Source of the DNA: Candidatus Omnitrophota bacterium
GTDB taxonomy: Bacteria; Omnitrophota; Gorgyraeia; Duberdicusellales; 4484-171
NCBI GenBank assembly: GCA_021735655.1
Contig: JAIPGM010000001.1
Location: forward strand, 192,001-256,000
Direction: 5' to 3'
Length of the DNA: 64,000 nucleotides
Of this stretch, positions 1,764 through 61,128 are shown one piece after another. Positions within the stretch are counted from its first letter, which is position 1, and every line of letters begins with the position of its first letter. The translations under genes and the position numbers were made by a program. The notes below the pieces were generated by a model. The model saw only the letters and a list, made by a program, of their open reading frames with translations. It did not search any database and was not told the origin of the DNA.

Positions 1764-1791
1764 AACGATAAGTTAAGATTGAACAATAAAG

Positions 1792-2886: not shown

Positions 2887-2901
2887 CTTTTTAATTTTAA
2901 T

Positions 2902-3867: not shown

Positions 3868-3873
3868 TAGACT

Positions 3874-36277: not shown

Positions 36278-36345
36278 ATTTTCTTAACTGCATAGATAGG
36301 ATTTTGTTTATAGCATTATCCTTTTTTTACGTCTTGCCTTTTAAA

Positions 36346-45091: not shown

Positions 45092-46288
45092 ATGTTTTTG
45101 TTTCTTTCGTTGTTGCCTTTAATGGTTGTGTTTTATTGGTTCGGCCTGCCCCGAAAGTGGCGAAGCTTATTTTTATTTGCAATGAGCCTTGTGTTTGCCG
45201 CGTCCATTAGCTTAAGGTATACGTTCTATTTTCTTTTCAATATAGTGATAGTTTATGTCGGCGGAGCCTCAATGCGTAAAACCGACAAAAGAAAAAAAAT
45301 TATTCTTAAATTGTTATTAGTTTGGCTGGTTGGTAATATCTGCTTTTTCAAATACATTGGTCTACTAGCTGTTAGCATGTCGAGGATATCTTGGTTTGCA
45401 TCAATGCCAAAAATACCAATGCCGGGGATAGTTTTACCTTTAGGAATTTCTTATATAATATTCAGGCTCATACATTACATTGTTGAGGTTTATAGAAGGA
45501 ATATGCCCGAGAGTTCCTTTAGTGATTTCGGACTATATATTTTATTCTTTCCGACATTTTTAGCTGGTCCGGTTGAAAGATTTCATAATTTTCATTCCCA
45601 AACTAGAGCCCAGAAAAGTATTTCCGCGGGCACCAGCCTTGGCGATATCAATTACGGATTATTTCGCATTATTTGCGGTATGGTTAAGAAATTCATTATC
45701 GGCGATAGTTTAGCAAGATTGATAATGCCGTTGCTTAATTCACCGCAGAATTATTCGCGTTTGCTGGTGTTGGTGTCTATATACGGTTTAGCTGTACGAA
45801 TCTATATGGATTTCTCAGGTTATACTGACATGGCTATTGGAATAGCTAGATTGTTTGGATACCGGATTGTTGAGAATTTTAAAAAGCCCTTTTTTCAAAA
45901 AAATATAGCTTTATTTTGGAGAAATTGGCATATATCAGTGTATACCTGGATAAGAGATTATTTCTTTTTTCCATTTTTCGGCCATCGGGCTTCCAGTGTA
46001 AAAGTTTATGCTGGCGTGTTTTTTTCTATGCTTGTATTTATGTTATGGCACGGAGGAAACTTTAATTTTTTTATTTTAGGAATTTATCATGGCTTGGGTC
46101 TTTTAACCTGGTATGGGTTTCAGGAGATAAAAAGAAAACATCCTGCGATTCGTCGCTTGACCGTCAAGCCTTATCTGGACCCGTTGGCTATTTTTTTTAC
46201 ATTTAGTTTTGTAAGTTTCGGTTTTATTGTTTTCGCTTTGGACATTAATTGTGCAAAGGCTATTTTACAAAGAGTATTTTTTGTTTAG
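45092..46288 (+). CDS. MBOAT-family membrane O-acyltransferase (DltB/AlgI-like)
   Basis: FWRNWHISVYTWIRDYFFFPF contains the invariant MBOAT His and is comparable to the DltB/AlgI block FWRRWHISLSSWLRDY. A second conserved His lies in LWHGGNFNF. Confidence 0.8.
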   Translation: MFLFLSLLPLMVVFYWFGLPRKWRSLFLFAMSLVFAASISLRYTFYFLFNIVIVYVGGASMRKTDKRKKIILKLLLVWLVGNICFFKYIGLLAVSMSRISWFASMPKIPMPGIVLPLGISYIIFRLIHYIVEVYRRNMPESSFSDFGLYILFFPTFLAGPVERFHNFHSQTRAQKSISAGTSLGDINYGLFRIICGMVKKFIIGDSLARLIMPLLNSPQNYSRLLVLVSIYGLAVRIYMDFSGYTDMAIGIARLFGYRIVENFKKPFFQKNIALFWRNWHISVYTWIRDYFFFPFFGHRASSVKVYAGVFFSMLVFMLWHGGNFNFFILGIYHGLGLLTWYGFQEIKRKHPAIRRLTVKPYLDPLAIFFTFSFVSFGFIVFALDINCAKAILQRVFFV

Positions 46289-46307: not shown

Positions 46308-46544
46308 TTGAAGGACAAAATAAGAAACTTTATCATTAGCAATTTTATGTTTGATGAGGGTAGTTTAGGAGATGATGATTTACTATTTGAGACAGGGATC
46401 ATAGATTCTATGGGATTTATCAAACTGCTCGCTTTCATTGATAAGACATTTAATCTATCTATGGATATGAGTGAAATAAGCATCGATAATTTTAATACTT
46501 TAAACAATATTGTTAAGAGCTTAGAGCGTAAGATTAATAGGTAA
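46308..46544 (+). CDS. DltC-like acyl/peptidyl carrier protein (78 aa)
   Basis: It is 78 aa. FETGIIDSMGFIKLLAFI is comparable to DltC FEEGIIDSFQTVGLLLEI, which carries the phosphopantetheine-attachment Ser. It lies between the MBOAT and adenylation genes. Confidence 0.7.
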   Translation: MKDKIRNFIISNFMFDEGSLGDDDLLFETGIIDSMGFIKLLAFIDKTFNLSMDMSEISIDNFNTLNNIVKSLERKINR

Positions 46545-46571: not shown

Positions 46572-47717
46572 ATGAATTTTTCCTGGAGTAAAAATCAAGA
46601 AGAACTCAAAAGGGCGGCAACAAAATTTGCGGCGGCCAAACTCAATGATGATATTATTCAAAGGGACAAGAACGGTAAATTTTCCTTAGACGGCTGGAAG
46701 GCCTGCGCTGACTTTGGTCTCCAGGGCATGTTAATGCCCAAAAAGTATGGTGGATTGGGATTTGGGTTACTTGATATAGTAGCTATCTTGGAAGGTATAG
46801 GCTACGGATGTAAAGATAATGGACTTATATTTTCAATCAATGCCCATATTTGGGGGGCAGAGGCGCCGATTTATCATTTTGGTACAGAAACCCAGAAGAA
46901 AAAATTACTTCCCGGTTTTTGTAACGGTAGCTTAATTGGGGCAAATGCAATGACTGAACCCGGTTCAGGTTCGGATGTCTATTCCCTTAGAACTACCGCT
47001 GTTAAAAAGAATAATTATTACACTTTGAACGGAACCAAGATCTTTGTCACCAATGCCCCTTTGGCTGATATATTTATTGTTTACGCTCGTACCGCTAAGT
47101 CTCGAGGATTCTCCGGTTTATCTTGCTTTTTAGTCGAGAAAGGTACCAAGGGATTAGTTATAGGTGAAAATTTCGAAAAAATGGGGCTTAGGACCAGTCC
47201 GATGTCGGAAGTGATTTTTAATAATTGTAAGATACCGAAAAACAATTTAGTCGGTCAAAAAGGTTCAGGAGCCTTGGTTTTTAATGATAGCATGGAATGG
47301 GAAAGGGTTTTTATTTTAGCTAATTGTGTAGGTATTATGGATCGCCAGCTGAAATATTGCATAGAATACGCAAATTCCAGAAAGTTGGATACCAAGCCAA
47401 TCGGTAAATACCAATCCGTAGCCAATAAGATTGTAGATATCCAGTCGAACCTTGAAGTAAGCCGCTTGCTTCTTCATAAGGCCGCTTGGCTTAAGAGCTG
47501 CAAAGAATCGGCATCAATGGCTTCAGCAATGACAAAATTGTATCTTAGCGAAGCTTATATTAAAAGTATTCGCTGTGTCATGGATATCTTTGGTGGATAT
47601 GGATATATGACTGAGTATGAATTGGAGCGCGAATTGAGAGATGCTCTAGCGAGCACTGCCTATTCGGGAACATCGCAGATACAAAAAAATATCATTGCCG
47701 GTCTTAGCGGATTATAA
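46572..47717 (+). CDS. Acyl-CoA dehydrogenase-family flavoenzyme
   Basis: It has the ACAD N-, middle- and C-domain signatures GANAMTEPGSGSDV, GTKIFVTNA and the catalytic-base region DIFGGYGYMTEYELERELRDA. Confidence 0.8.
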   Translation: MNFSWSKNQEELKRAATKFAAAKLNDDIIQRDKNGKFSLDGWKACADFGLQGMLMPKKYGGLGFGLLDIVAILEGIGYGCKDNGLIFSINAHIWGAEAPIYHFGTETQKKKLLPGFCNGSLIGANAMTEPGSGSDVYSLRTTAVKKNNYYTLNGTKIFVTNAPLADIFIVYARTAKSRGFSGLSCFLVEKGTKGLVIGENFEKMGLRTSPMSEVIFNNCKIPKNNLVGQKGSGALVFNDSMEWERVFILANCVGIMDRQLKYCIEYANSRKLDTKPIGKYQSVANKIVDIQSNLEVSRLLLHKAAWLKSCKESASMASAMTKLYLSEAYIKSIRCVMDIFGGYGYMTEYELERELRDALASTAYSGTSQIQKNIIAGLSGL

Positions 47718-47718
47718 T

Positions 47719-49302
47719 ATGGAATACCGATTACCGACATTATTGCGGCAAAGCGCAAAGAGTCAACCTTTTAAAGTTGCCATTAGACAGGGCGAAGAAG
47801 AACTTTCATATGAAGATTTGAATTTGTTGAGTGATAAGTTGGCCTCTTGCTTAGTCGATAAAGGCCTAAAGGTTGGCGACAGAGTAGGAATATATATAGA
47901 TAAATCGATTGATGCTGTTATTGCTATATTTGGTATTTTAAAATCGGGCGGTTGTTATGTTTCTTTGGATCCTTTGGATAATTCCCGGAGGCAGACCTTA
48001 ATTGTTAAGGATTGTTCATTGAAATATTTGATTTCTTCTTCAAAAAAGTTACCATCTCTGGTTAAAATAATACGCGGTATAGATAGTCTAGAGTATATAT
48101 TTGTAGTTGACGCCAACAAAAAAGAAAGTAGCAGGGATTGGTGCGACATTAAGATGGTTTTTAAAAAGGAGATATTTAATTCAGATGTTAGCATTTCCCC
48201 AAGGTCGAGAAGATTAAAAGACAACAACTCGGCATATATACTTTATACTTCTGGTTCAACCGGAAAACCCAGAGGAGTAGAGATTAGTCATCGGGCTTCA
48301 CTTGCTTTCATAAATTGGGCCAATAAGTATTTTAATATTACTAAAGCCGACATTGTGGCGGCTCAGTCTCCGTTTCATTTCGACCTTTCCATTTTTGATA
48401 TTTTCGTCAGCATAAAGGCCGGCGCGACCATTTGTATTGTTCCTCAGTCTTTATCAATTTTTCCTAAATCTTTGGCAGATTTTATCGAGAGCCAGAAAAT
48501 TAGCACTTGGTATTCTACACCTTCGGTTTTAATCAAGCTTCTTTACTACGGTAATCTTCAGAAAAGGAATTTATCAGCCCTAAAAAGAATTATTTTCGCC
48601 GGTGAGGTATTTCCCCCAAAGCATCTGCATAAGCTAATGAAGATATTGCCGGGAGCTAAATACTATAATTTATACGGACCTACCGAAACGAATGTCTGTA
48701 CTTGTTATTTTTTAAAGCGTATTCCTAAGGTAGATAAACCGATCCCGATAGGGTGTCCTTGTCGCGGCCAATATATTTTCATAGTTGATAAGGCTGGCAA
48801 TCTTGTTAAAAACGGTCAATCGGGCGAATTATGTGTTAGCGGACCCACACTTATGCAGGGATACTGGAATAATTCTCAGGCAACCGAGAAAGCTATGATT
48901 AAGCTCAATTTTTTAAATAAAGCCAGTAAGGTATATAGAACTGGTGATTTGGCCAAAATTAGAAAAAACGGAGATATTCTTTATTGTGGCCGTAATGATG
49001 AAATGTTAAAGGTAAGGGGATATCGGGTTGAGCCGGCTGAAATTGAAGCAGTTTTGCATTCATGTCCGGGAATAAAAGAAGCAGCTGTGGTAGGAGTCTC
49101 AGCTGATGCAGCTGGGGACAGAATCAAAGCCGTGATTAGCCTAAAAACTAACTATTCTGTTTCTGAGAGTAAGGTAAAGCTTTTTTGTTCCAGGCAGTTG
49201 CCTTCCTATATGGTTCCTGCGGAAATATTTTTTAAAAAGTCGTTACCTCGGCTTTCTACCGGAAAAATTGATAGGAAGAAATTGAAAACAATTCGAAGAT
49301 GA
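47719..49302 (+). CDS. AMP-dependent adenylation enzyme (DltA-like carrier-protein ligase)
   Basis: Adenylation core motifs are present: YTSGSTGKPRGV (A3), YGPTETN (A5), YRTGDLAKI, GRNDEMLKVRGYRVEPAEIE (A8) and LPRLSTGKIDRKKL (A10). The ATG at 47719 is preferred over the overlapping ORF-track start 47695. Confidence 0.8.
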   Translation: MEYRLPTLLRQSAKSQPFKVAIRQGEEELSYEDLNLLSDKLASCLVDKGLKVGDRVGIYIDKSIDAVIAIFGILKSGGCYVSLDPLDNSRRQTLIVKDCSLKYLISSSKKLPSLVKIIRGIDSLEYIFVVDANKKESSRDWCDIKMVFKKEIFNSDVSISPRSRRLKDNNSAYILYTSGSTGKPRGVEISHRASLAFINWANKYFNITKADIVAAQSPFHFDLSIFDIFVSIKAGATICIVPQSLSIFPKSLADFIESQKISTWYSTPSVLIKLLYYGNLQKRNLSALKRIIFAGEVFPPKHLHKLMKILPGAKYYNLYGPTETNVCTCYFLKRIPKVDKPIPIGCPCRGQYIFIVDKAGNLVKNGQSGELCVSGPTLMQGYWNNSQATEKAMIKLNFLNKASKVYRTGDLAKIRKNGDILYCGRNDEMLKVRGYRVEPAEIEAVLHSCPGIKEAAVVGVSADAAGDRIKAVISLKTNYSVSESKVKLFCSRQLPSYMVPAEIFFKKSLPRLSTGKIDRKKLKTIRR

Positions 49303-49452: not shown

Positions 49453-50748
49453 ATGAAGGATTACAATAAGGAGTCTCTTTTTACTGCAGCTGGAAAGTTT
49501 ATTTTTGGCACAGGTATCATCTTTTTACTGCTTTTTTTATTTTATCAGAAGTCATTAATTCTGTCTTTAGATCCTAATCCAAATTTGTCTGAAATTACAG
49601 TTGAGAAAATAAAACTTACCAGGCTTTATTTATTATCGATATCTTTGGTGTTGATTTTCATATCAGGGGCAGCAAAGATGTTGCCGGTTTTTAACCGTTA
49701 TATAAATCGAATAATGGCAATTAAACCAGTGCGGTATTTTTTGTTGATAATGCTGCCGATAGTTATTTTCGAACTATACTTTCAACCTTTAGCTTTGCAA
49801 AAACCGACAATTTTAATGCGGGATGATGATTTAATCTGGAAATTACGGCCAAATAGCGAATCTATATGGGCTGAAGCGATAGTAAAGATAAATTCCAAAG
49901 GCTTAAGGGGTCCCGAGTTAGATTACGCTAAACCGGCTGATACAAAAAGAATCCTTTATTTGGGCGATTCTATAACTTTTGGTTTTAGCTTGAAAAGCTA
50001 CGATCAAACATTTCCCTGTCAGGTTGAGGAAATTTTAGAGGAAGATAATAATAGAAAAGTTGAAACAATAAATGCCGGTGTGGGCGGTTATTCTCCCTGG
50101 CAGGAATATATCTATTTATCAAAAGAAGGTATTAACTATGATCCGGATTTAGTTGTAGTCGCTTTTACCTTAACCGATGTTAGTGAGAAGCTTGGCTTGA
50201 GACGATTCGGCGGCGACAGCGAAGGGGCTCAGCTGGCAGCTTCGGCTATTACGATATTTGATTGGTTAAGTAACAAAAGCCGCATTTTATATTTCATAAA
50301 GGAGGCGGTTACTAACCTAAGATTCAACGGCGATATTGAAAAAATGGTACCGGTTGAAGAAGGGCTTAAAATTACCCAGCTAATAGATGAAGCAAACGAT
50401 CCGGACATTAAAAATGCATGGGAGATTACCTTAAATAATCTTGGTAAAATATTCGATTTTTGTAAAAGTGGAAATGTCCCGGTAATATTAGTTATTTTTC
50501 CGGTAGCGTCTCAATTTGATGATGTTGAGAACATGTCAGGGCCACAACTTTTTGTGAGCAGGTTTGCTAGTAAAAAAAATGTTCTGTCATTGGACTTGCT
50601 GCCTTTGTTATCTCAGAGAGTCAAAAATAAAAAAGTAGACCTAGAAGATTATTTTTTGGGTCCACTTCACTTATCAGCTGAGGGAAATAAGGTAGTTGCT
50701 GAATTAATAGCTGACTTTATTAAGGAAAGTAATATTTTATATTTTTGA
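49453..50748 (+). CDS. SGNH/GDSL-fold hydrolase/acyltransferase with N-terminal membrane anchor (DltD-like role)
   Basis: Two N-terminal TM helices are followed by SGNH block I ILYLGDSITFG, then a GxxG block AGVGG and the C-terminal LGPLHLSAEGN (DxxH-like). Confidence 0.55.
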   Translation: MKDYNKESLFTAAGKFIFGTGIIFLLLFLFYQKSLILSLDPNPNLSEITVEKIKLTRLYLLSISLVLIFISGAAKMLPVFNRYINRIMAIKPVRYFLLIMLPIVIFELYFQPLALQKPTILMRDDDLIWKLRPNSESIWAEAIVKINSKGLRGPELDYAKPADTKRILYLGDSITFGFSLKSYDQTFPCQVEEILEEDNNRKVETINAGVGGYSPWQEYIYLSKEGINYDPDLVVVAFTLTDVSEKLGLRRFGGDSEGAQLAASAITIFDWLSNKSRILYFIKEAVTNLRFNGDIEKMVPVEEGLKITQLIDEANDPDIKNAWEITLNNLGKIFDFCKSGNVPVILVIFPVASQFDDVENMSGPQLFVSRFASKKNVLSLDLLPLLSQRVKNKKVDLEDYFLGPLHLSAEGNKVVAELIADFIKESNILYF

Positions 50749-51620
50749 CTTTTATCAAAATGAGTAAAACCTTAAATATTGAAGATTTGGATAGGGCTGT
50801 ACTTAGGAAATTGGAAACTCTGCAGAGTATTTTTTCTGATATGGGAAGTGCTTTAATAGCCTATTCCGGAGGTGTAGATAGCACGCTTTTAACCAAGGTG
50901 GCCAAGGATGTTCTAAAAAGTAAGGCGGTTGCTGTGACTTCAGAGTCAGAAACTTATCCTTTACGGGAATCAAGGCAGGCTAAGGAATTGGCAAGGCAGC
51001 TGGGAATAAGGCATATTATTATTAATACCCGTGAACTAGATAATGAAGAGTTTTCTAAAAATTCACCTCAAAGATGTTATTTTTGCAAAAAAGAATTGTT
51101 TTCCAGACTTTTGGATTTAGCAAAACAGCATAGTTTAGATTATGTTGTTGAGGGCTCAAATCACGACGATCGGTCTGATTATCGGCCGGGCCTAAAGGCA
51201 ATAGAGGAACTAGGCATAAGAAGTCCTTTAAAAGAAGCCGAGCTAACCAAGAAAGAAATCAGAATACTTTCGAAGATGTTCGGTTTAAGCTCTTGGAATA
51301 AACCGTCTTTTGCCTGCCTATCTTCAAGATTCCCTTACGGAACTAAAATAACCAAAGATGGATTAATAAAGGTTGATCGGGCTGAGGGGGTGTTGCTTAA
51401 ATTTGGCTTTAGCCAGTTAAGAGTAAGAATACATGGGCCAATAGCAAGGATAGAGGTTCCCAAGGAAGATATTTCTTTATTTTTTAAGGCTGGTTTGTCA
51501 GACAGAGTTGTTGAAGAATTTAAAAAAATCGGTTTTTTCTATGTAACTTTAGATTTGGCAGGTTATGAAACTGGCAGTATGAATAAGCTGCTTAAGAGCG
51601 AGGATAAATTTGGATACTAA
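50745..51620 (+). CDS. larE: ATP-dependent sacrificial sulfur transferase LarE (nickel-pincer nucleotide cofactor biosynthesis)
   Basis: The PP-loop is IAYSGGVDSTLL. The C-terminus ...DYRPGLKAIEELGIRSPLKEAELTKKEIRILSKMFGLSSWNKPSFACLSSRFPYG...RVRIHGPIARIEV matches the LarE family consensus, including the sacrificial Cys. Confidence 0.8.
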   Translation: MTFIKMSKTLNIEDLDRAVLRKLETLQSIFSDMGSALIAYSGGVDSTLLTKVAKDVLKSKAVAVTSESETYPLRESRQAKELARQLGIRHIIINTRELDNEEFSKNSPQRCYFCKKELFSRLLDLAKQHSLDYVVEGSNHDDRSDYRPGLKAIEELGIRSPLKEAELTKKEIRILSKMFGLSSWNKPSFACLSSRFPYGTKITKDGLIKVDRAEGVLLKFGFSQLRVRIHGPIARIEVPKEDISLFFKAGLSDRVVEEFKKIGFFYVTLDLAGYETGSMNKLLKSEDKFGY

Positions 51621-52356
51621 AAGACTAAAAAAATTACTTCAGGATATAAAATCGGGCAAAAAAAATGTAGCCTCAGCTATGCGGGCATTAAAGTCTCTAC
51701 CTTTTGAGGATTTAGGTTTTGCTAAGGTGGATACTCATAGAGATTTACGTTGTGGATTCTCAGAAGTCGTATTCTGTCAGGGGAAAACTTTAAACCAAGT
51801 AACAACTATCGTTAAAAAACTTTCCTTGGTTAACTCTTGTGTTTTGGCAACTAAAGCCGATAAAAAGGTTTATAGGGCTATAAAACGAATCAGAAAGAAT
51901 GCTGTTTATTATGAACAGGCAAAAATAGTAGTTATTGGAAAAAATAAAAAGTTAAAGTCAGAAAAAACTATTTTGGTTGTCAGTGCCGGTACTTCGGATA
52001 TTCCAGTAGCCGAAGAAGCCGCGGTTACAGCCATGGTTTTAGGCAATAAAGTTCAAAAGGTATATGATGTGGGGGTCGCCGGTGTACACCGGTTGCTTAA
52101 ACATAAACAAAAACTGTTTAAAGCCAGTGTGATTATAGTTGTTGCCGGAATGGAGGGGGCCTTGGCAAGTATAGTCGGAGGGTTGGTGGATAAGCCGGTT
52201 ATAGCTGTTCCTACCAGTGTGGGTTATGGAGCAAGCTTTAAGGGACTTTCGGCATTACTTACTATGCTTAATTGCTGTGCTCCGGGAATTACAGTGGTAA
52301 ATATAGATAATGGATTTGGGGCAGGGTACGCTGCTAGTATAATAAATCGACAATGA
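51610..52356 (+). CDS. larB: Nickel-pincer cofactor biosynthesis protein LarB (PurE-like carboxylase/hydrolase)
   Basis: It is 248 aa. The N-terminal LarB-specific region contains HRDLRCGFSEVVFCQGKT. The PurE-like core is ILVVSAGTSDIPVAEEA...VAGVHRLL. Confidence 0.75.
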   Translation: MDTKRLKKLLQDIKSGKKNVASAMRALKSLPFEDLGFAKVDTHRDLRCGFSEVVFCQGKTLNQVTTIVKKLSLVNSCVLATKADKKVYRAIKRIRKNAVYYEQAKIVVIGKNKKLKSEKTILVVSAGTSDIPVAEEAAVTAMVLGNKVQKVYDVGVAGVHRLLKHKQKLFKASVIIVVAGMEGALASIVGGLVDKPVIAVPTSVGYGASFKGLSALLTMLNCCAPGITVVNIDNGFGAGYAASIINRQ

Positions 52357-53534
52357 AGATAGCTTATTTTGATTGTTTTTGTGGGATAAGTGGGGATATG
52401 ATTTTGGGGGCATTTTTGGACTGTGGGTTAGATATTGAAGATTTGCGAAAAGAATTGAATAAGTTAAAGTTATCCGATTATCAAATAAAAATTGAGAAAG
52501 TAAAAAAAGGTGTTATCTCAGGTACTAAATTCAGCGTTGACATAAAAAAACAAAAAATCGAGCGTAGCTTAAAAGATATCCTTAAGATTATAGGAGAAAG
52601 TAATTTGGATGCTGATATAAAAAAATCATCCAGAGAGACATTTGAGTTGTTAGCAAAGGTAGAAGCCGAAATACATAATCAAGATATAGAAAAAATACAT
52701 TTTCATGAAGTAGGGGCAGTTGATTCTATAGTAGATATAGTGGGAGCTTTTATAGGAATAAAACTTTTAGGTATTGAATGTATTTATTCGTCAAAGATTC
52801 ATGTCGGGGATGGCTTTGTTAGGTGTCAGCATGGTACTTTGCCTGTTCCTTCGCCGGCCACGATAGCTTTGCTAAAAGGCATTCCGATTTATTCAAAAGG
52901 GATAGACTCTGAATTGGTTACGCCTACTGGAGCTTGCATTATAAGGAAAGTTTCTAAAGGGTTCGGTCTCTTACCAGACATGGAGATAAAAAAAATAGGC
53001 TATGGCGGAGGAAGAAAAGATTTGTCAATTCCTAATCTTTTAAGAATTTTTATAGGGGAAACCGAGGAGGATAATATATACGATAATGATGAAGTAATAC
53101 TTATTGAGACAAACATAGATGATATGAGCCCCGAGGCAGTAGGCTATATTTCAGAAAGATTGCTTAGCCGAGATGCTTTGGATGTTTTCACTACTCCAAT
53201 TTTTATGAAAAAAAACCGGCCGGCAGTAACTTTAAGTATTTTGACCGAACCTAGCAAGCTCGACGACATGCTTTCTTGTTTATTCTCGGAAACAACTACC
53301 TTTGGTATAAGGATGCGTGGTTTTAAGCGGAGAAAACTTTTACGCAAGATTGCTATGATTGATACAAAGTTTGGTCCGATTGCGGTTAAAGTTGGCCGGA
53401 CTAGTGAAGGGATAAAGACTATCGCTCCTGAATATGAATCTTGTAAACAAGTTGCTCAAAAGGAAAATATTCCTTTTAAAAATATATACAGCGAAGTAAA
53501 GAAAATAGCTGATCAAGTTTTAAAAGAAACCTAA
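52353..53534 (+). CDS. larC: Nickel insertion protein LarC (DUF111 family)
   Basis: The N-terminus MKIAYFDCFCGISGDMILGAFLDCG is the LarC/DUF111 signature. At 393 aa it is the right size to contain both the LarC1 and LarC2 parts. Confidence 0.8.
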   Translation: MKIAYFDCFCGISGDMILGAFLDCGLDIEDLRKELNKLKLSDYQIKIEKVKKGVISGTKFSVDIKKQKIERSLKDILKIIGESNLDADIKKSSRETFELLAKVEAEIHNQDIEKIHFHEVGAVDSIVDIVGAFIGIKLLGIECIYSSKIHVGDGFVRCQHGTLPVPSPATIALLKGIPIYSKGIDSELVTPTGACIIRKVSKGFGLLPDMEIKKIGYGGGRKDLSIPNLLRIFIGETEEDNIYDNDEVILIETNIDDMSPEAVGYISERLLSRDALDVFTTPIFMKKNRPAVTLSILTEPSKLDDMLSCLFSETTTFGIRMRGFKRRKLLRKIAMIDTKFGPIAVKVGRTSEGIKTIAPEYESCKQVAQKENIPFKNIYSEVKKIADQVLKET

Positions 53535-53545
53535 AGGCTTAGCTG

Positions 53546-54760
53546 ATGTCGGTGAAACTTAAGCGTCTATTTGGATCATTTGTGAGATTGTGTTCATTTA
53601 TTGTGCTTATCTTTAGGCCTTACGCCGATAACGAGATTCAGGCATCTAGTGAGCCTTTGCCCGGTGAGCATAAAAATATACCGGCACCTTTCTATCCGCC
53701 GAAAAATTCCAAAATTATATCTTTACCACAACAGAAACAAGTGGTTACGACTGAAGTTTCGATAATAAAAGGTTATAATTTATATTCTATTACCAGAGAA
53801 GCTATCGATGCAATCGGTGGTATGAAAAGTATAGTAAAAAAGGGTAATAAAGTATTTATAAAGCCTAACTATGTAAGTGGCGGCCTTAATGGGCATGATC
53901 CAGTTACAACCGGAGAAATTGCTCATCCGGAAGTAGTTGCTTCGGTAGCGGAAGAATGCTTGAAGGCCGGAGCTAAAGAAGTAATAATTGGTGAGTGGGT
54001 CGAGCGTCCTTATAAAATAAACTTTGGTGGCGAGGAAGGAAAAGATGGTGCTCAAGTTAAGCATTTAATCGATTTATTAAATAAAAAATATGGACATAAG
54101 ATTTATTTGATAAATTTAATGGACCATACTACTAATTTTAAATACTTTCCTTCAAGGACTAAATTAGGCTTTTTGGCAATTCCTGACATAGTAGCTGAAG
54201 CAGATGTAATTATCTCGATCCCTTCTCTGAAAACTCATCATAAACCATGCCCGGTAAGTTTAGGTATGAAGAATTTTATGGGTATTATGCCTTCTATTTT
54301 TTATGGCGAGCCGCGGTATAAATTGCATGAAGCTGGAGTTCATCAGGTAATAGTGGACATTAACCAAGCTTTAAAGCCATCTTTAGTTGTTATCGATGGA
54401 AGCTTTGGGATGGAAAAGGGTGGTGCCTCAGTGTTTTTAGGAGGCAAACCAGTAGATGTTAGCAAGCGTATAGGAGGGTTTTTGGTGATTGCCGGGAGAG
54501 ATCCGGTGGCGACAGACGCAACTGCTACTCGGTTGATTACTAAAGATTGGGGGCCGAGACCTGAAGATTCCAATTTGGGTACTCCTTGGTATGTACATCA
54601 TCTTCGGATGGCTAGCGAACAAGGATTGGGGGTTTTGGATGCTTCGCGAATAATTATTAAGGGTGAGAGCTTAAAAAGCGTTGAAATGAATTGGCAGGCT
54701 TCGGATGATGGAGTATATCCTGAAATTAAGAAAGATGAAAATCCTAAAGACAACAATTAA
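53546..54760 (+). CDS. DUF362-family protein, LarA-related (candidate nickel-pincer-nucleotide-dependent enzyme), with N-terminal hydrophobic segment
   Basis: The DUF362 blocks are VFIKPNYVSGG...EVIIGEW and VVIDGSFGMEKGG. IVAEADVIISIPSLKTHHKPCPVSLGMKNFMGIMPS aligns with the LarA catalytic-core segment KVAAEADLLISEGFIESHFFAGFSGGRKSVLPGIAS, with His and Lys preserved. Which LarA catalytic residues these positions correspond to is from memory. Confidence 0.5.
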   Translation: MSVKLKRLFGSFVRLCSFIVLIFRPYADNEIQASSEPLPGEHKNIPAPFYPPKNSKIISLPQQKQVVTTEVSIIKGYNLYSITREAIDAIGGMKSIVKKGNKVFIKPNYVSGGLNGHDPVTTGEIAHPEVVASVAEECLKAGAKEVIIGEWVERPYKINFGGEEGKDGAQVKHLIDLLNKKYGHKIYLINLMDHTTNFKYFPSRTKLGFLAIPDIVAEADVIISIPSLKTHHKPCPVSLGMKNFMGIMPSIFYGEPRYKLHEAGVHQVIVDINQALKPSLVVIDGSFGMEKGGASVFLGGKPVDVSKRIGGFLVIAGRDPVATDATATRLITKDWGPRPEDSNLGTPWYVHHLRMASEQGLGVLDASRIIIKGESLKSVEMNWQASDDGVYPEIKKDENPKDNN

Positions 54761-55676
54761 GTGCATATTTTATTGTTTTCTTTTGATTTATTCTACTGGA
54801 GGAGATGTCCGGTCAGAAACCTCTTTGGTAATCGAAACTAATGATTTACAAGGATATTGGAAACAGGGGGTGGTTGGATCAAGAAAAGTAGTTTTTACCG
54901 ATAAGGCAGATAATTTTTCAGAGATTAGAGCATCTGTGCCTAAAGATGGAAAATATAATTTATTGGTATATCTTCATCATGATTGGAGAAATAGAGAAGC
55001 TTTCCCTGGTATTTATGTTGAAGCGGTTGATTCAAAAGGAATCCAGCATAAAGGGTATCACCTAGTTGAAAATATTTGGTATTTAGATGAAGAAGCCCAA
55101 GGTCGTTGGTTTTTTGTTTCCTTATCAAAAAATCCTTATTGGGTTCTCCCTCAAGGAGAGTTGTATTTAAAATTCTGGGCTGTGGGAAAAACCTTTCCCT
55201 GGGAAGGTCAATCCATTCCTTTAGAAGGTAAGGTTTCGATTAATAGTTTTTTTCTTATGCCGGTATTTAACTCCGATTCTGGTATGTTTTCTTTAGGCAT
55301 AATTAATCCTGAAAGCGGCAAGGGGGATTGGGAGGTTCATAATTATCATCCGTTGCATGCCACCAACTTTATTAAGACCGATAAAAAAAATGCACAATTT
55401 TTGTGTGAAACCGATATTGTGAAGGCAGGGTATTATCAAGCATTCCTTTCAGTTTTTTCGCCTTCAGGTGGTAATTTGGAGTTAAACTTGAAAGGCCAGT
55501 CAGACAATAGGGCAACCGTCATCAGATTAGATTCTAGTAAGGAGTGGTTGTTGATTCCAACCGAAACTATGTATTTAGATAAAGGCTATTATTCGTTGAT
55601 GTTTAAAAATTTAACCTCAAAAGAAGTAATGATTGATTTTGTTTTCTTAGCGCCATCGGAAAAATCTTTTAAATGA
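54735..55676 (+). CDS. Secreted protein of unknown function
   Basis: The ATG at 54735 gives MKILKTTIKCIFYCFLLIYSTGG, a signal peptide. The ORF-track start 54705 would overlap the upstream gene further. The rest of the protein is Trp/Tyr-rich and beta-rich. Confidence 0.4.
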   Translation: MKILKTTIKCIFYCFLLIYSTGGDVRSETSLVIETNDLQGYWKQGVVGSRKVVFTDKADNFSEIRASVPKDGKYNLLVYLHHDWRNREAFPGIYVEAVDSKGIQHKGYHLVENIWYLDEEAQGRWFFVSLSKNPYWVLPQGELYLKFWAVGKTFPWEGQSIPLEGKVSINSFFLMPVFNSDSGMFSLGIINPESGKGDWEVHNYHPLHATNFIKTDKKNAQFLCETDIVKAGYYQAFLSVFSPSGGNLELNLKGQSDNRATVIRLDSSKEWLLIPTETMYLDKGYYSLMFKNLTSKEVMIDFVFLAPSEKSFK

Positions 55677-57244
55677 ATTTAAAAGCAATACCACAAAATA
55701 AAGTTTTAATAATTTTTGCTATTTTAATCGTTGGTTTATTACTGCGTGTATATAAGTTAGATAGTAAGAGTCTTTGGTATGATGAAGCCTGCGCTTTAAG
55801 CTTTACTGAGTATAATTTGAGTGATGTGCCGTCTCACCGTTATATAGCTAAACCGGTATATTTTTTAATTTTAAAACCATGGGTTAGTTTATTTGGATCC
55901 AGTGAATCTGCTGGTCGGTCTTTATCAGTTATTTTTGGGTTAGTTTCAATTTTTTTAATCTATAAACTAGCTAAAATACTTTTTGGCCGGTCAGTAGGAG
56001 CGTGGAGTGCTTTTATCTTGGCTATCTCGCCTTATCATATTTATCATTCCCAGCAGCTAAGAAATTACAGCTTATTTGTTTTGCTGGGTATTTTGTCGAT
56101 GTTTTTATTTGTAAAAAGCCTGGAAAAAACCAAAAATAGTTTATATCTTGTTTTTCATACCTTGATCAATGGCCTTCTTATTTATACGCATCCTTACGGA
56201 ATATTTATAATAATTGCTCAGAGTATAGTTTTATTTGCTCAAAGAAAGAGAGTAAAATTTAAAAGAAGATGGGTTATTTCCCAGATAATAGTTTTATTAT
56301 GCTTTATTTCTTTGGTTTCGGTGATAGTCACAAACCCTAAGACTAATGAAATCGATTATATTCAGAAACCCGATCTTGCTTTGGTGCTTGAAACCTTTGA
56401 GGCTTTCAGCTACGGGGGGCCCAGGCAGGCGCATGGTGGTTTGGGGTTTTGGATTGATTCCCAGCGTTTAGTTGTGCCCAGAATTACTGTTTTTATATTT
56501 TTGATTTTCTGTTTAATGGGATTAATCCCTAAAAAGAAATTCAGGAAAGATTCTGACCTTTCTTCTGATCCCTTAGGCGGAATTATTTTGATTTTGCTCT
56601 GGCTGGTAGTGCCGATTATTTGTGCCTATAGTTTTTCAAAGATTTTTTTTCCGATTTATATAACTAGGTATCTCGTTGCTTCCGCCCCGGCTTTTTATAT
56701 CATTGTTGCTAGGGGAATAAGTCAGATGCCAAGATTAACTCGTCAAACAGTTATTCCAGTAGTTATTATTTTTCTGTCAGTATTTTCTTTAAACATTCTA
56801 TATAATCCGCAGGTAAAAGGCGACTGGCGAGATGGGGCTATTTTCTTAAAAGAACGGATAAAAAAAGAAGATGCTATTGTGTTTGTCCCTTTACAGCAAA
56901 TTGTTCCTTTTTGGTATTACTATAAATACGGCCAAAAGCATGCCTTAAAGAACATAGATAGATTTGGCAGGCTGGTAAACGGAAAGCAGTATCGGGAGTT
57001 TTACGATAAGGCTAATTTTATTACGGGTATAGAATTAGATGCCCGGCAAGAGGATATAGAAAATAACTTTAATAATCTAGCTAAGAACGATGAAGATATC
57101 TGGCTTATTGTTTCTCCGGGGTGGATGTCGCAGAAATCCCTTGAGTTTACGCAGAAGTATCTTGATGAATTTTATGTTTTAAAGAGTAAAAGTTCTTATT
57201 CTTATAATGGTGTGGAAATTTTACAATATAGCGTTAAAAATTAA
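55673..57244 (+). CDS. GT-C fold membrane glycosyltransferase, PMT/ArnT-like (third paralog)
   Basis: The first-loop motif is KSLWYDEACALSFTE. The DE hallmark and TM topology are the same as in the 41908 protein, including the downstream block QQLRNYSL, which is comparable to QEARNYSL. Confidence 0.7.
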   Translation: MNLKAIPQNKVLIIFAILIVGLLLRVYKLDSKSLWYDEACALSFTEYNLSDVPSHRYIAKPVYFLILKPWVSLFGSSESAGRSLSVIFGLVSIFLIYKLAKILFGRSVGAWSAFILAISPYHIYHSQQLRNYSLFVLLGILSMFLFVKSLEKTKNSLYLVFHTLINGLLIYTHPYGIFIIIAQSIVLFAQRKRVKFKRRWVISQIIVLLCFISLVSVIVTNPKTNEIDYIQKPDLALVLETFEAFSYGGPRQAHGGLGFWIDSQRLVVPRITVFIFLIFCLMGLIPKKKFRKDSDLSSDPLGGIILILLWLVVPIICAYSFSKIFFPIYITRYLVASAPAFYIIVARGISQMPRLTRQTVIPVVIIFLSVFSLNILYNPQVKGDWRDGAIFLKERIKKEDAIVFVPLQQIVPFWYYYKYGQKHALKNIDRFGRLVNGKQYREFYDKANFITGIELDARQEDIENNFNNLAKNDEDIWLIVSPGWMSQKSLEFTQKYLDEFYVLKSKSSYSYNGVEILQYSVKN

Positions 57245-57259
57245 AGGTATATATTTAAA

Positions 57260-59194
57260 ATGATTAAGTTTTTATATCAGGAAATGTACCAGCGCAGAAA
57301 TATTATCGCAATTTTAGTCATTATGCTTATTGTCGGAATGTTCTATTTTCCGACGATAAAGGATATCGATTCTACAATTATAAGCGAGGATGACTGGTTT
57401 GGTTTTTATTACTATGCGGGCATATCAAGATTAACAGCCTTGAAATATCATCAGTTGCCGTTGCGTACTCCTTATCTAGGCGGAGGGTACCCTTCGATTG
57501 CTCACCCTTTCGATTATACCCTAAGCCCTTTTTTCTTTTTTATTTTATTGTTTGGGGAAGTAGCAGGATTAAGGTTGATGGTGTACTTTATTTTTATGTT
57601 TGGTTCTTTGGGGATGTTTTACTTTACTAGATATGTTTTGAAATACAATCTCATGGGAGCTATTTTCTCTTGCTTGACTTTTTCTCTCTGCAGTTGGGGG
57701 GCTTTTGAGGTAGTTGACGGAAATATCCCTAAGATATTTTGTTATCTTTTGCCTTGGCTATTTGCTTTTTTGCTGCAATCTAAAAAAGATAAGCGATTCT
57801 TAATCCTTGCTTGTTTAGTTTTGAGTCCGATTCTGACCCTATCTGGTTTATCTTTTATCCCGGTAGTGCTGGCTTTGTTTTTATTAGCCTGCTTTTATGC
57901 CGTCAGTATAAATAAGGGGTTTAAGTTTAAAATCAGAGGATCGTATATAGCTTTTTTTCTGGCCATAATAATCGGAACCTGTCTTTTATTTGCTATTAAA
58001 GTCATTCCGATGTTTGAACTTTATAAAATGCGCACAGAGTATATTCATTTGCCATACGAGAATTCTTATTCTGCGATTTCCCGAGCCACTAAGGCCTTTG
58101 GCGCTTGTTTGGATATGGAATTACTTAAAAAGTCCTTGTTGGATAAGAGCTTTCGTGGATATTCAACAATGTATTTAGGGTATCTTCCACTCGTTTTTAT
58201 GTTTTTATCGATTTTAATCTATGCAAAAAAAAATATGCGCTACATATTGCTTCTGATCGTATTTGCCCTCATTCAGTTTGGATCGAGAAGTCCCCTGGAT
58301 TTATTTAAGATATTTTGGCAGATTCATCCGTCAGTTCATGGGATATGGAGGCTTAATAAATATTTTGGTTTTTTTATTCCCTTTTTTATTTCTATAATTG
58401 CCGGGAGGTTTTTCTTAATTTTTAGACATAAAAAGATAATTAAACCGCTGGTATTTATAATCATCGGGATTAGTGCATATCATATGTATTCGAATAATAG
58501 ATTGATTTTTAGTCCTATGGTTTACGAAAGAAAGCCGTCTTTGGAGGTGTATGATTCGTTTTTTCCGGTTGAGATAGAAAACACTACCATAGAAAGAGCT
58601 TGGCCGGGATTTCATGAGGTTAAAGACATACGGTCCTATCAGCCTTTTTGGTTGCTGTTACGTCAAAATATAGGAGTGGTGAATTTTAATTGGTCGGGGA
58701 ATTTAAACCTTTCTCAATACGCTCAGCCTAAATATATACTTCCTACTGGTAAACAGGTAGGAGAAATTGTCTATGTCCGTGGTTACGAACAGTTATCCCA
58801 AGATATAAATGTACCAATTGATTTAATGACTGTAGCAAGGGACAACCCTCATTATCAAGGAGAAGTATTTTTTTTGAAAAAAAACAACAAGGTGGACTCG
58901 ACATATCTTAGTCCTAATATAGTAAAAGCTGATGTTAGTCTTAGAAGTCCTGATCGGCTTATTATAAATCAGAATTACCACAAGAGTTGGACAGTGGACA
59001 AGGGCAAGCTGATAAATCACAAAGGCTTGCTGGCAGTTGAGCTTGTAGATCAAGGTGTTCATCAGGTGACATTTAGATATGTTCCTCTAGATTTTTATTT
59101 AGGCGCGATTGTAAGTTTTTTTACACTTATAGGTATGTTGGCTTACTTTTGGTTCGTGCCTGGGAAAAAAATTAGTTTCAATAAAGCTAAATAA
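57260..59194 (+). CDS. Polytopic membrane protein with C-terminal soluble domain, GT-C-like architecture (paralog A of a tandem pair)
   Basis: It is 644 aa, with about 12 TM segments over the first ~430 aa. It is clearly paralogous to the next gene over its full length (DWFGFYYYAGISRL...LPLRTPYLGGGYPSIAHPFDY, compared with DWSFYTFYASAYRT...LPIRTHLLAGGYPLIAHPRDW). Confidence 0.45.
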   Translation: MIKFLYQEMYQRRNIIAILVIMLIVGMFYFPTIKDIDSTIISEDDWFGFYYYAGISRLTALKYHQLPLRTPYLGGGYPSIAHPFDYTLSPFFFFILLFGEVAGLRLMVYFIFMFGSLGMFYFTRYVLKYNLMGAIFSCLTFSLCSWGAFEVVDGNIPKIFCYLLPWLFAFLLQSKKDKRFLILACLVLSPILTLSGLSFIPVVLALFLLACFYAVSINKGFKFKIRGSYIAFFLAIIIGTCLLFAIKVIPMFELYKMRTEYIHLPYENSYSAISRATKAFGACLDMELLKKSLLDKSFRGYSTMYLGYLPLVFMFLSILIYAKKNMRYILLLIVFALIQFGSRSPLDLFKIFWQIHPSVHGIWRLNKYFGFFIPFFISIIAGRFFLIFRHKKIIKPLVFIIIGISAYHMYSNNRLIFSPMVYERKPSLEVYDSFFPVEIENTTIERAWPGFHEVKDIRSYQPFWLLLRQNIGVVNFNWSGNLNLSQYAQPKYILPTGKQVGEIVYVRGYEQLSQDINVPIDLMTVARDNPHYQGEVFFLKKNNKVDSTYLSPNIVKADVSLRSPDRLIINQNYHKSWTVDKGKLINHKGLLAVELVDQGVHQVTFRYVPLDFYLGAIVSFFTLIGMLAYFWFVPGKKISFNKAK

Positions 59195-61128
59195 TGAGAG
59201 TAGATAAAAAGTATCTTCTAAGTGTATTACTGATAGTTATTATGGTAGCGATGGCTTATTTTCCTTTATTAAAAAATATAAATTCTATGATCACCAGCGA
59301 CAACGATTGGTCTTTTTATACTTTTTATGCTTCTGCCTATCGCACTAGTGTGCTTGAATATAAACAACTTCCGATACGAACTCATCTCTTAGCCGGAGGT
59401 TATCCTTTGATAGCTCATCCTCGTGATTGGAGCTTGAACCCTTTGGCTTTTTTAATCCTTATATTTGGTGAAATCGCCGGACTAAAGCTAAGCATGTTTA
59501 TTTTATTTCTTTTGGGTGGCCTAGGGATGTTTTATTTGGCTAAGAATGTTTTGGGCTATAACTACCTAGGTGCCTTATTTTCTTCATTTTTATATATATT
59601 TTCTAGTTGGGGAGCTTACCATACTGTTCAGGCAAATTTTAGCGTTCTTTTAAGCTATATGCTCCCTTGGGTGATTGCTTTTTATCTTAAATCTATACAT
59701 AAAAGAAAATTTATTATATACGCTTCATTGGCTTTGGCTATGGTAATTACGCTTGGTTCCCTTCTTGTCATACCGACAATTATTTTCTTTTTCATTTTTT
59801 CCCTTATGAAATCTTTAAGCATTCAGAAGCGGTTGAGGTTGAGGTTTAATTCAGGGTATTTAAAGAATTTTACGATGATAGTTTTATGTGCTGTTTTGTT
59901 GTGTTCGGTTAAAATATTGCCTATGGTTGGATTGTTGAATTCACGAACCGATGTCTATTTTCATGGCGCCGGTGAAGAAACCACTTATGATACGATAGAT
60001 CGAAACCATTTTTTTACTTCCGAAAAACTCATTAAGTCAATTTTTGATAAAGGGTACCAACATCGTTTAAAAATTTACTTTGGCTATATTCCTATAGTTT
60101 TTTTTCTGCTAGCTTTATGTTTTTATGGCAAGAAGATGTTTTCGTTTTTCTTTCCGTTCATATTTTTTACCATAGTTATGTTCGGGCCCTATAGCCATCT
60201 AGATTTATATCGATTATTATGGAATTTACACCCTTTCATTCGAGCGATTGTTGAACAAGATAGGTACTTTTTGCCATTTGTTATTTTTCCGGTTGCCCTT
60301 ATATCGGGTAGCGTTTTTCTTTTACTGAAAAGACTAACGAGATTTCGGCCGTTTTGGGCTATCGCAGTAGGAATACTTATAATCTATAGCTTTTTTGATA
60401 CATTTTTTGTTCAGCAAAATATTATGAAGCGGATAGTATATAAGCCAGTTCCGAATACAGCTTCTTTCATTCGGTCACCAGAATCATTTTTCCAGATTGC
60501 CTTTGATGATCCGATTCAAGATATCGAAGAAGAAAAAGGAGAGTTGTCAGTTTGCAGCTCTTCTAATTCCCCTAAGCCTTGTCGGCCGCAGGACTATGTA
60601 TTAATTAAAGATTATACTAAAATATTTCCCCTGATTCGTCAGAATATCGGCGTGGTAACTTTTTGTGGATATGCTGAAAGCTTAGACATAGCCGAATCAG
60701 CAATTCCTAAATATATCATTAATAAGAATAACTACTATGAGCCATTTAGCAATATACATCAATTTAGGTCTATAGCTGATAAACTTGCCGTTAATCCTAA
60801 TTACCGGGGTGAGGCCTTTGCTTTAGGTAAGGACAATAAAATAGAGATTGTGTCACTGGGGCCGACGCGAATAGAAATAAACGCTAATTTTTTAACGCCT
60901 GATACTCTGATTATAAATCAAAATTACCATAGAAGCTGGAAGTCAAACACAGGATTGATTGCTAATCATCAGGGGCTTTTAGCGGTAGATTTACCCGAAG
61001 GAAGGCATGATATTGTATTGCGATATGTTCCTTTAGATTTTTATTTAGGCGCGGCAATTAGCCTGTTGGCTTTGCTGGGTATTGGTGGTTATATTATTTT
61101 TTTAAAGAATGAGCAGGATGGAGAATAA
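59194..61128 (+). CDS. Polytopic membrane protein, GT-C-like architecture (paralog B of tandem pair)
   Basis: The two paralogs have the same length (644 aa) and collinear similarity, including the C-terminal LIINQNYH[KR]SW...GLLAV[ED]L...RYVPLDFYLGA. TAATG start-stop overlap with paralog A. Confidence 0.45.
   Translation: MRVDKKYLLSVLLIVIMVAMAYFPLLKNINSMITSDNDWSFYTFYASAYRTSVLEYKQLPIRTHLLAGGYPLIAHPRDWSLNPLAFLILIFGEIAGLKLSMFILFLLGGLGMFYLAKNVLGYNYLGALFSSFLYIFSSWGAYHTVQANFSVLLSYMLPWVIAFYLKSIHKRKFIIYASLALAMVITLGSLLVIPTIIFFFIFSLMKSLSIQKRLRLRFNSGYLKNFTMIVLCAVLLCSVKILPMVGLLNSRTDVYFHGAGEETTYDTIDRNHFFTSEKLIKSIFDKGYQHRLKIYFGYIPIVFFLLALCFYGKKMFSFFFPFIFFTIVMFGPYSHLDLYRLLWNLHPFIRAIVEQDRYFLPFVIFPVALISGSVFLLLKRLTRFRPFWAIAVGILIIYSFFDTFFVQQNIMKRIVYKPVPNTASFIRSPESFFQIAFDDPIQDIEEEKGELSVCSSSNSPKPCRPQDYVLIKDYTKIFPLIRQNIGVVTFCGYAESLDIAESAIPKYIINKNNYYEPFSNIHQFRSIADKLAVNPNYRGEAFALGKDNKIEIVSLGPTRIEINANFLTPDTLIINQNYHRSWKSNTGLIANHQGLLAVDLPEGRHDIVLRYVPLDFYLGAAISLLALLGIGGYIIFLKNEQDGE

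Follow-up and report, generated by a model that had tools for sequence, protein, structure and literature searches.

We examined a 64,000-nucleotide stretch of contig JAIPGM010000001.1 (positions 192,001 to 256,000; hereafter the window) from a Candidatus Omnitrophota bacterium, in which larE-larB-larC, an operon for making a cofactor, nickel-pincer nucleotide (NPN), is directly followed by a gene coding for a DUF362 protein. An earlier reading of this DNA, the original prediction, had proposed that the DUF362 protein is the probable NPN-dependent enzyme of the operon; as a whole, that interpretation was partly supported. The reading that we prefer, and to which we give about an even chance of being right, is that two separately conserved modules, larEBC on the one side and DUF362 with a secreted protein (ORF323) and a GT-C glycosyltransferase on the other, happen to abut in one co-directional envelope-biogenesis array, and that the NPN client may be encoded elsewhere. 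Part of the evidence for this reading is gene order: the lar-DUF362 adjacency of the window was unique among 172 comparable loci. On present evidence, the pairing is lineage-specific and not conserved, and does not establish NPN use by DUF362.

The lar genes, the DUF362 triad and their neighborhoods

The lar operon and the four-gene run that it forms with DUF362 lie where the original prediction had placed them, on the + strand, and the identities assigned to the four open reading frames (ORFs) all scored above model cut-offs. The genes of the two modules are the following:

50745..51620, + strand: larE, ATP-dependent sulfur transferase of NPN biosynthesis, probably of the CXXC-C ([4Fe-4S]-type) class (TIGR00268)
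51610..52356, + strand: larB, nicotinic acid adenine dinucleotide (NaAD) carboxylase/hydrolase of NPN biosynthesis, PurE-like (NF033503, PF00731)
52353..53534, + strand: larC, CTP-dependent nickel insertase (PF01969, TIGR00299, NF052512)
53546..54760, + strand: DUF362 protein of 404 aa (PF04015)
54705..55676, + strand: ORF323, secreted Trp-rich all-beta protein, probable start ATG 54735
55673..57244, + strand: GT-C (PMT_2/ArnT-like) membrane glycosyltransferase (PF13231, 63 bits)

All three lar proteins exceeded the NCBIfam equivalog cut-offs, and the E-values of the larE, larB, larC and DUF362 matches ranged from 1e-30 to 1e-143. LarE (327 bits against TIGR00268; cut-off 150) carries the PP-loop SGGVDS at residues 41-46 and has three cysteines in all, C111, C114 and C191, which make up a CXXC-C motif. 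This tri-cysteine motif defines the [4Fe-4S]-dependent catalytic LarE class, exemplified by Thermotoga maritima, whereas LarE of Lactiplantibacillus plantarum has a single sacrificial Cys (PMC9283937). The window LarE probably belongs to the [4Fe-4S]-dependent, non-sacrificial catalytic class, with cluster binding predicted, and the sacrificial-Cys label that it had been given earlier is probably wrong. LarB scored 293 bits against NF033503 (cut-off 175) and 48 bits against the PF00731 AIRC domain. LarC matched PF01969 (Ni_insertion) with 478 bits over profile positions 1-375 of 375, carries GISGDM at residues 11-16, and is encoded by one full-length, frameshift-free ORF in which LarC1 (TIGR00299, 208 bits; cut-off 90) and LarC2 (NF052512, 145 bits; cut-off 50) are fused. 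The SGGVDS motif, the PurE-like character of LarB and the GISGDM motif had all been read correctly in the original prediction. As judged from these sequences, the window holds a complete, canonical NPN biosynthesis gene set.

The listed start of larE is a TTG, which puts its first codon within the end of an upstream SGNH gene (overlap of 4 nt, if the TTG is used); another candidate start, an ATG, is found 15 nt downstream at 50760. The larE and larB genes, the latter also starting with TTG, overlap by 11 nt, and larB and larC overlap by 4 nt, so that the 4-nt overlap claimed earlier held for larB/larC and failed for larE/larB. An 11-nt spacer separates larC from the DUF362 gene on the same strand. 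Scanning for promoters and terminators gave background-level results, with nothing between larC and DUF362, and both GC content and GC skew were unbroken through the lar genes.

Two sets of loci were used for the comparison of gene order: DUF362 loci, comprising the best 80 of the GTDB species representatives with 10-kb flanks within a set of 90 loci, and 82 loci around the closest LarC relatives (L092-L173; 763 kb in all). Searches by tblastn with the window LarE, LarB and LarC revealed no larE, larB or larC within 10 kb of DUF362 in any of the 90 loci. In each of six orthologs (59-73% identity), DUF362 is followed by an unannotated ORF, about 310 or 180 aa long, and then by a PMT_2 gene; the genes around them are of the GT2, GT4 and radical-SAM types, and lar genes are absent within 8 kb. 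An ORF323 homolog lies directly 3' of DUF362 in 29/30 Omnitrophota-clade loci, and a GT-C (PMT_2) homolog comes after it in most orthologous loci as the third member of a conserved triad. The gene before DUF362 in the closest orthologous loci codes for a GT2 or a B12-radical-SAM protein, not for a lar protein. Among 91 genes flanking distant DUF362 homologs (60 distant DUF362 genes profiled), there was no lar family and no recurrent partner.

Turning the comparison around, the order larE-larB-larC was common among the 82 LarC loci, and none of them had a LarA-family gene beside lar within 10 kb; the lineages of these loci hold many 'orphan' NPN operons. A DUF362 gene was found near lar in one of the 82 (L098), and is of another subfamily and on the opposite strand. 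DUF362 homologs in neighborhoods free of lar genes, which the original prediction had named as a sign against itself, are therefore what the set of 90 DUF362 loci contains. We rejected L098 as a second case of the lar-DUF362 pairing, since its DUF362 gene sits in a ferredoxin-AFOR-cytochrome b operon on the opposite strand. That operon (L098:11746-17283, minus strand) comprises a DUF362 gene with a twin-arginine (Tat) signal, a 4Fe-4S ferredoxin, an aldehyde:ferredoxin oxidoreductase (AFOR) and a cytochrome b561; the L098 DUF362 keeps the KTH...K motif described below, and the larEBC operon is about 5 kb off on the opposite strand. Two other Omnitrophota lar loci, one with larC alone (L092) and one with larEBC (L093), had no DUF362 nearby, and neither was among the best 80 DUF362 loci. 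The two modules also differ in their relatives: LarC has its nearest ones, scattered over several phyla, at only about 60% identity, and DUF362 has >100 Omnitrophota orthologs among the matches listed (55-78% identity). Among contigs >100 kb, only the contig of the window itself, 341,261 bp long, was common to the best-120 match lists of DUF362 and LarC.

ORF323 had no Pfam or NCBIfam match, and a single-sequence AlphaFold2 (AF2) prediction was unusable as a fold model (pLDDT 37). Its family occurs in a short form of about 187 aa and a long form of about 315 aa, which have a common N-terminal module (motifs WYL...GRW...FW).

Fold, active-site residues and export of the DUF362 protein

The DUF362 protein matched PF04015 with 106.3 bits (cut-off 24) over profile positions 1-199 of 200; in a Pfam scan at E<=0.01 this was its only match, PF09861 and PF21113 remaining unmatched. 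An AF2 model built from 67 homologs (pLDDT 88.3, pTM 0.83) has a compact alpha/beta domain; along the chain, an N-terminal signal/anchor helix (residues 3-22) is joined by a disordered linker (28-58) to a catalytic domain of LarA fold (69-390). Foldseek comparison of the model with the Protein Data Bank (PDB) returned LarA-family structures as all of the top 18 matches (E 1e-6 to 4e-5); sequence and profile searches against PDB sequences gave no match, LarA included, and there is no solved DUF362 structure. PF04015 and PF09861 are both in Pfam clan CL0471, and DUF362 sequences have served as the outgroup of a LarA tree (PMC11770544). Several true LarAs also carry precomputed PF04015 matches. 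The DUF362 protein is a true LarA homolog with the two-domain alpha/beta LarA fold; the description 'LarA-related' in the original prediction holds at the level of the fold, for a kinship already on record at clan level. A full-text literature search found no paper tying DUF362 to the nickel-pincer cofactor beyond this Pfam clan statement. Fe-S binding by the window DUF362 was also considered and was rejected, because C138 is its single conserved Cys.

LarA1 is defined by R75, which binds phosphate, by H108 and H174 as acid/base residues, by K184 as the thioamide tether and by H200 as the Ni ligand (PMC11770544). With shallow profiles, local hhalign alignment of DUF362 to LarA was weak (P=0.008) and the global mode meaningless; after deepening both profiles (DUF362, 125 sequences of 32-100% identity; LarA, 15 sequences; LarA1 numbering from PDB alignments) the alignment was usable, and placed DUF362 82-372 over LarA1 42-315 (P=1.2e-4, 249 columns) with the following correspondences:

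LarA1 H174: DUF362 H231, His in 125/125
LarA1 K184: DUF362 K242, Lys in 125/125
LarA1 G189: DUF362 G246, 125/125
LarA1 P110: DUF362 P155, 113/125
LarA1 H108: DUF362 E153, column with E in 57, H in 40 and Q in 28
LarA1 R75: DUF362 G112, column not conserved, in a loop of low alignment confidence
LarA1 H200: in an 11-residue gap of the profile alignment, no aligned counterpart

Two of the five LarA signature residues, H174 and K184, are thus matched in DUF362, R75 and H108 are not, and H200 has no aligned counterpart, so that the LarA-like Lys/His positions to which the original prediction had pointed were kept in part. The register was the same in an independent HMMER check with a DUF362 hidden Markov model (HMM) against 124 LarA sequences (best E=8.8e-6), in which 'ISIPvlKTH...LGlKNF' falls over 'IPISSIEPH...GGRKSF' with His and Lys aligned. 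The His/Lys pair is also kept in the distant DUF362 of the other subfamily at L098. The invariant residues of DUF362 are K106, N108, K229-T230-H231, K242-N243, R257, H261 (124/125), D271 and D324, of which the polar K106, N108, R257, H261, D271 and D324 differ from LarA. The near-invariant H261 is 19 residues past the Lys, versus 16 for H200 in LarA1, and K106 and N108 are at the same strand end as the position aligned to R75. LarA homologs with a single catalytic His are known (PMC12611868).

A canonical twin-arginine signal ('TRRDFLK') was present in 57/58 distant DUF362 homologs, 47 of which also have a lipobox-like Cys, and the RR motif was present in 38/67 Omnitrophota-clade homologs. The N-terminus of the window DUF362 has K-R instead ('KLKRLFGS'), and its nearest relatives have short, non-RR N-termini of the 'MRIFIK' type. 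There is, in other words, a signal-peptide switch inside the DUF362 family, from distant members that resemble Tat lipoproteins, through an Omnitrophota clade that has RR in part, to the non-RR subclade of the window. These signals suggest that the family is extracytoplasmic and was ancestrally Tat-dependent, and we infer its site of action from them. Export complicates the loading of DUF362 with a cofactor made in the cytoplasm. In addition, RR has been lost in the very subclade that adjoins larEBC, which argues against the export of a folded, NPN-loaded protein here, although a degenerate KR motif is possible.

Weighing the readings of the locus

Under the two-module reading, LarB would carboxylate and hydrolyse NaAD, the [4Fe-4S]-type LarE would insert two sulfurs and LarC would insert nickel; larEBC, like its closest relatives, would stand without a recognised client gene alongside, and the client may be encoded elsewhere in the genome. 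The second module would be the triad of exported DUF362, secreted ORF323 and GT-C glycosyltransferase. DUF362 most likely acts beyond the cytoplasmic membrane, as an isomerase or epimerase-type enzyme akin to LarA, and its substrate would be a sugar, lipid-linked or in a polymer, that the neighboring GT-C enzyme handles.

A Pfam scan of all window ORFs of at least 120 aa gave no match to PF09861 (LarA), and the sole match in an unfiltered six-frame scan of the 64-kb window with a LarA-family HMM was the DUF362 ORF (E=0.05). The window therefore lacks a canonical LarA, as had been stated in the original prediction, and DUF362 is its only LarA-like gene; around the lar genes, this search reached 50 kb upstream and about 10 kb downstream.

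Several points weigh against the two-module reading. Immediate adjacency of larC and DUF362, with 11 nt between them on the same strand, is unlikely to arise by chance at a single locus, given the few LarA-clan genes per genome. No other NPN client, whether LarA, an aldo-keto reductase (AKR) or an ornithine cyclodeaminase, was found in the 64 kb. Both the invariant Lys at the site where NPN is tethered and an ancestral Tat signal, which serves the export of folded, cofactor-loaded protein and is in keeping with cytoplasmic loading of a cofactor or metal, would suit an NPN enzyme. The lack of lar genes beside other DUF362 genes is in turn weak evidence against a functional link; adjacency statistics discriminate poorly, because the lar operons of this lineage are not beside LarA either (0/82).

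These points bear on the proposal that DUF362 is the NPN client of the adjacent larEBC, which we regard as possible and, on balance, doubtful. NPN would be carried on K242 and/or held by H261, with H231 and E153 as acid/base; the protein would be loaded in the cytoplasm before export, and would epimerise, by a hydride shuttle, a hydroxyl of a sugar or sugar acid destined for the envelope polymer. The proposal has to contend with the residues, R75 being aligned to a non-conserved Gly, H108 to Glu, and H200 falling into the alignment gap; with the loss of the twin-arginine motif in the window subclade, which makes folded, cofactor-loaded export doubtful; and with gene order, since lar genes are near DUF362 in 0/90 loci within 10 kb, two other larC-bearing Omnitrophota genomes have no DUF362 nearby and are missing from the best 80 DUF362 loci, and only the window's own contig (>100 kb) is in both best-120 lists. 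DUF362 is also found in extracellular dockerin/CBM9 proteins. With no lar genes in the 90 loci, three of five signature residues without an aligned match and an exported protein, 'probable NPN-dependent enzyme' overstated the case.

A bolder form of this proposal, which we consider unlikely, is that DUF362 forms a further branch of the LarA superfamily, a second and exported one, which would carry NPN (K242 as tether, H261 as Ni ligand) out of the cytoplasm. At the outer face of the membrane, it would then epimerise a lipid-linked or polymeric sugar in a redox-neutral way and without NAD, for transfer by the adjacent GT-C enzyme.

It is improbable, with a small chance left to it, that the lar genes entered the glycan locus by recent insertion and are functionally tied to neither neighbor, and possibly not co-expressed. 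Such an insertion would agree with the GT2 or B12-radical-SAM gene, in place of lar, before DUF362 in the closest orthologous loci, and with the contrast between LarC relatives of about 60% identity from several phyla and the >100 Omnitrophota DUF362 orthologs (55-78%) among the matches listed. The unbroken GC content and skew, the overlapping stops and starts that bind the lar genes into the array, and the three intact lar ORFs with family-typical motifs all argue otherwise.

The remaining reading draws on the genes directly upstream of larE, which make up a putative acylation module:

45092..46288, + strand: DltB-like MBOAT membrane O-acyltransferase (PF03062, 74 bits; TIGR04091, 176 bits, below cut-off)
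46308..46544, + strand: 78-aa DltC-like carrier protein with phosphopantetheine site (PF00550, 27.1 bits, cut-off 20.8; DltC models, 38-44 bits)
46572..47717, + strand: acyl-CoA-dehydrogenase-fold (ACAD) enzyme (NF053553 PigA, 418 bits, and NF045652 RedW, 355 bits, both below cut-off)
47695..49302, + strand: stand-alone amino-acid adenylation enzyme, DltA-like (TIGR01733, 360 bits, cut-off 317; DltA models, about 305-310 bits)
49453..50748, + strand: SGNH/GDSL hydrolase-fold protein with N-terminal membrane segment (PF13472, 39.9 bits)

The carrier protein, at 78 aa, is not in the 80-aa ORF list of the window. The ACAD enzyme is closest to the L-prolyl-carrier-protein dehydrogenases PigA and RedW, and the module suggests a (dehydro)prolyl or pyrrole-2-carboxyl ester on an envelope glycan. 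A partial parallel to this module was seen in a second Omnitrophota genome (L093:8430-20296), where larE-larB-larC in a glycan locus precedes a pair of PilZ genes, a sensor kinase and a regulator, an AMP-ligase, an ornithine/diaminopimelate (Orn/DAP) decarboxylase, a PP-binding carrier and an MBOAT.

The lar operon could be functionally tied to this module, with an NPN/NPAD enzyme encoded elsewhere that supplies or racemises an acyl donor (proline or a hydroxy acid), which would be loaded on the carrier and esterified onto glycan. Consistent with such a tie are the 4-nt overlap of the SGNH stop with the larE start, the kinship of the window ACAD to prolyl-carrier dehydrogenases, the presence of larEBC in L093 within about 8 kb of the AMP-ligase, PP-binding, MBOAT and Orn/DAP decarboxylase genes in the absence of DUF362, and the existence of a proline-making nickel-pincer (NPAD) ornithine cyclodeaminase, known according to its citation in PMC13524815. 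We nevertheless give this reading the slimmest chance of all, since none of the module's proteins resembles a fold known to bind NPN, the window yielded neither an ornithine cyclodeaminase nor an AKR, MBOAT or AMP-ligase homologs are nearby in 1/82 LarC loci, and MBOAT and ligase genes are common in such glycan loci anyway.

The Pfam scan of the window ORFs placed all of these genes in a very large, nearly all co-directional envelope/glycan locus with radical-SAM genes. Its content includes ABC-2 exporters, many B12-binding and SPASM radical-SAM enzymes, GT4, GT2 and four PMT_2-like GT-C genes, bearing out the glycan setting described in the original prediction. Some of the radical-SAM enzymes are fused into proteins of 1052-1284 aa, and the outsized fused proteins are found at 7073-16741 and 20647-23805: an ABC ATPase of 1155 aa that carries a long extension, a radical-SAM protein of 788 aa, a protein of 1284 aa made of three radical-SAM/SPASM units and one of 1052 aa made of two B12-binding radical-SAM units. 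Directly 3' of the GT-C gene are tandem paralogous polytopic membrane proteins of 644 aa (57260-59194 and 59194-61128), neither with a Pfam or NCBIfam match. Three ORFs in a row at 34669-37149 (296, 260 and 281 aa), within the same glycan/radical-SAM locus, had no Pfam match. An ABC importer of the Opp/Dpp/Nik type occupies 3-4842, with a binding protein truncated at the edge of the window, two permeases and two ATPases; it was considered as a nickel importer and is not assignable as one, as the NikBCDE/Opp2 and oligopeptide models score alike, all below cut-off.

Known systems and significance

Among known systems, the LarA superfamily (DUF2088: PF09861 and PF21113), which comprises NPN-dependent 2-hydroxyacid racemases and epimerases, is the closest to DUF362, and the window protein is PF04015, not PF09861. 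It further differs from LarA in lacking conservation at the substrate-binding positions Q295 and K298, in bearing a signal for export (Tat in most relatives) where LarA stays in the cytoplasm, and in having no link to lar genes across 90 other loci. Compared with the L. plantarum locus (larA-larB-larC-larD-larE and a Ni transporter), larB, larC and larE are likewise intact in the window and the NPN pathway is predicted to be complete, but the order is E-B-C, LarC is one uninterrupted ORF, LarE is assigned to the CXXC-C [4Fe-4S] class, and there is no adjacent larA, larD, regulator or dedicated Ni transporter.

Polyprenyl-phosphate sugars are remodelled in the periplasm before GT-C transfer in other bacteria, as by DprE1/DprE2, which carry out 2'-epimerisation of decaprenyl-P-ribose via transient oxidation with flavin adenine dinucleotide (FAD) and NADH, and by ArnD/ArnT. 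The window resembles these systems, as a functional analogy only, in combining within one locus a GT2-type synthase with a modifying enzyme and a GT-C transferase; the folds and the FAD/NADH cofactors are unrelated to DUF362. The upstream module resembles Dlt D-alanylation in its MBOAT, small carrier, adenylation enzyme and SGNH-fold membrane protein, and differs from it in the dehydrogenase, which is not part of Dlt, and in that the window matches are below equivalog cut-offs except for the adenylation domain.

A closer precedent for the original prediction is NphT, an AKR-fold NPN-dependent hydride transferase that was found by mining genes adjacent to larBCE, with LarA homologs purposely set aside (PMC13524815). 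Like the DUF362 gene of the window, nphT is a gene beside larBCE in LarA-less clusters whose product has a His/Lys motif; NphT acts on sugars, with NPN covalently on Lys, but is a cytoplasmic TIM-barrel protein unrelated to LarA/DUF362, and its function is experimentally proven (PMC13524815). With NphT and an ornithine cyclodeaminase that depends on NPAD published (PMC13524815), a 'new NPN enzyme family', as had been proposed for the DUF362 protein, would no longer be a first. DUF362 in an extracellular carbohydrate context is known from DUF362-CBM9-dockerin proteins of gut metagenomes (PMC5742341). These parallel the pair of DUF362 and secreted beta protein in the window, and differ in that the modules are fused, of Gram-positive cellulosome type, with no GT-C partner and no lar genes reported (PMC5742341).

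Roughly 15% of sequenced prokaryotes have larBCE without LarA (PMC11796402), and which enzymes use the nickel-pincer cofactor in LarA-less genomes is an active question, to which answers began to appear in 2025-2026 with the ornithine cyclodeaminase and NphT. For that question, our negative synteny result is a caution that one adjacency should not be taken for a functional link at the level of an operon. To DUF362, a large uncharacterised family, the analysis adds the LarA fold, an invariant Lys at the tether position together with one catalytic His, and predicted export that is mostly by Tat. If DUF362 does not use NPN, it would be a LarA-fold family that uses something else, and would inform the evolution of the NPN site. 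If it does, and is an exported NPN carrier, no NPN enzyme before it would have been extracytoplasmic or have acted in envelope glycan assembly, and the reach of nickel-pincer chemistry would come to include the cell envelope and NAD-free epimerisation of glycans.

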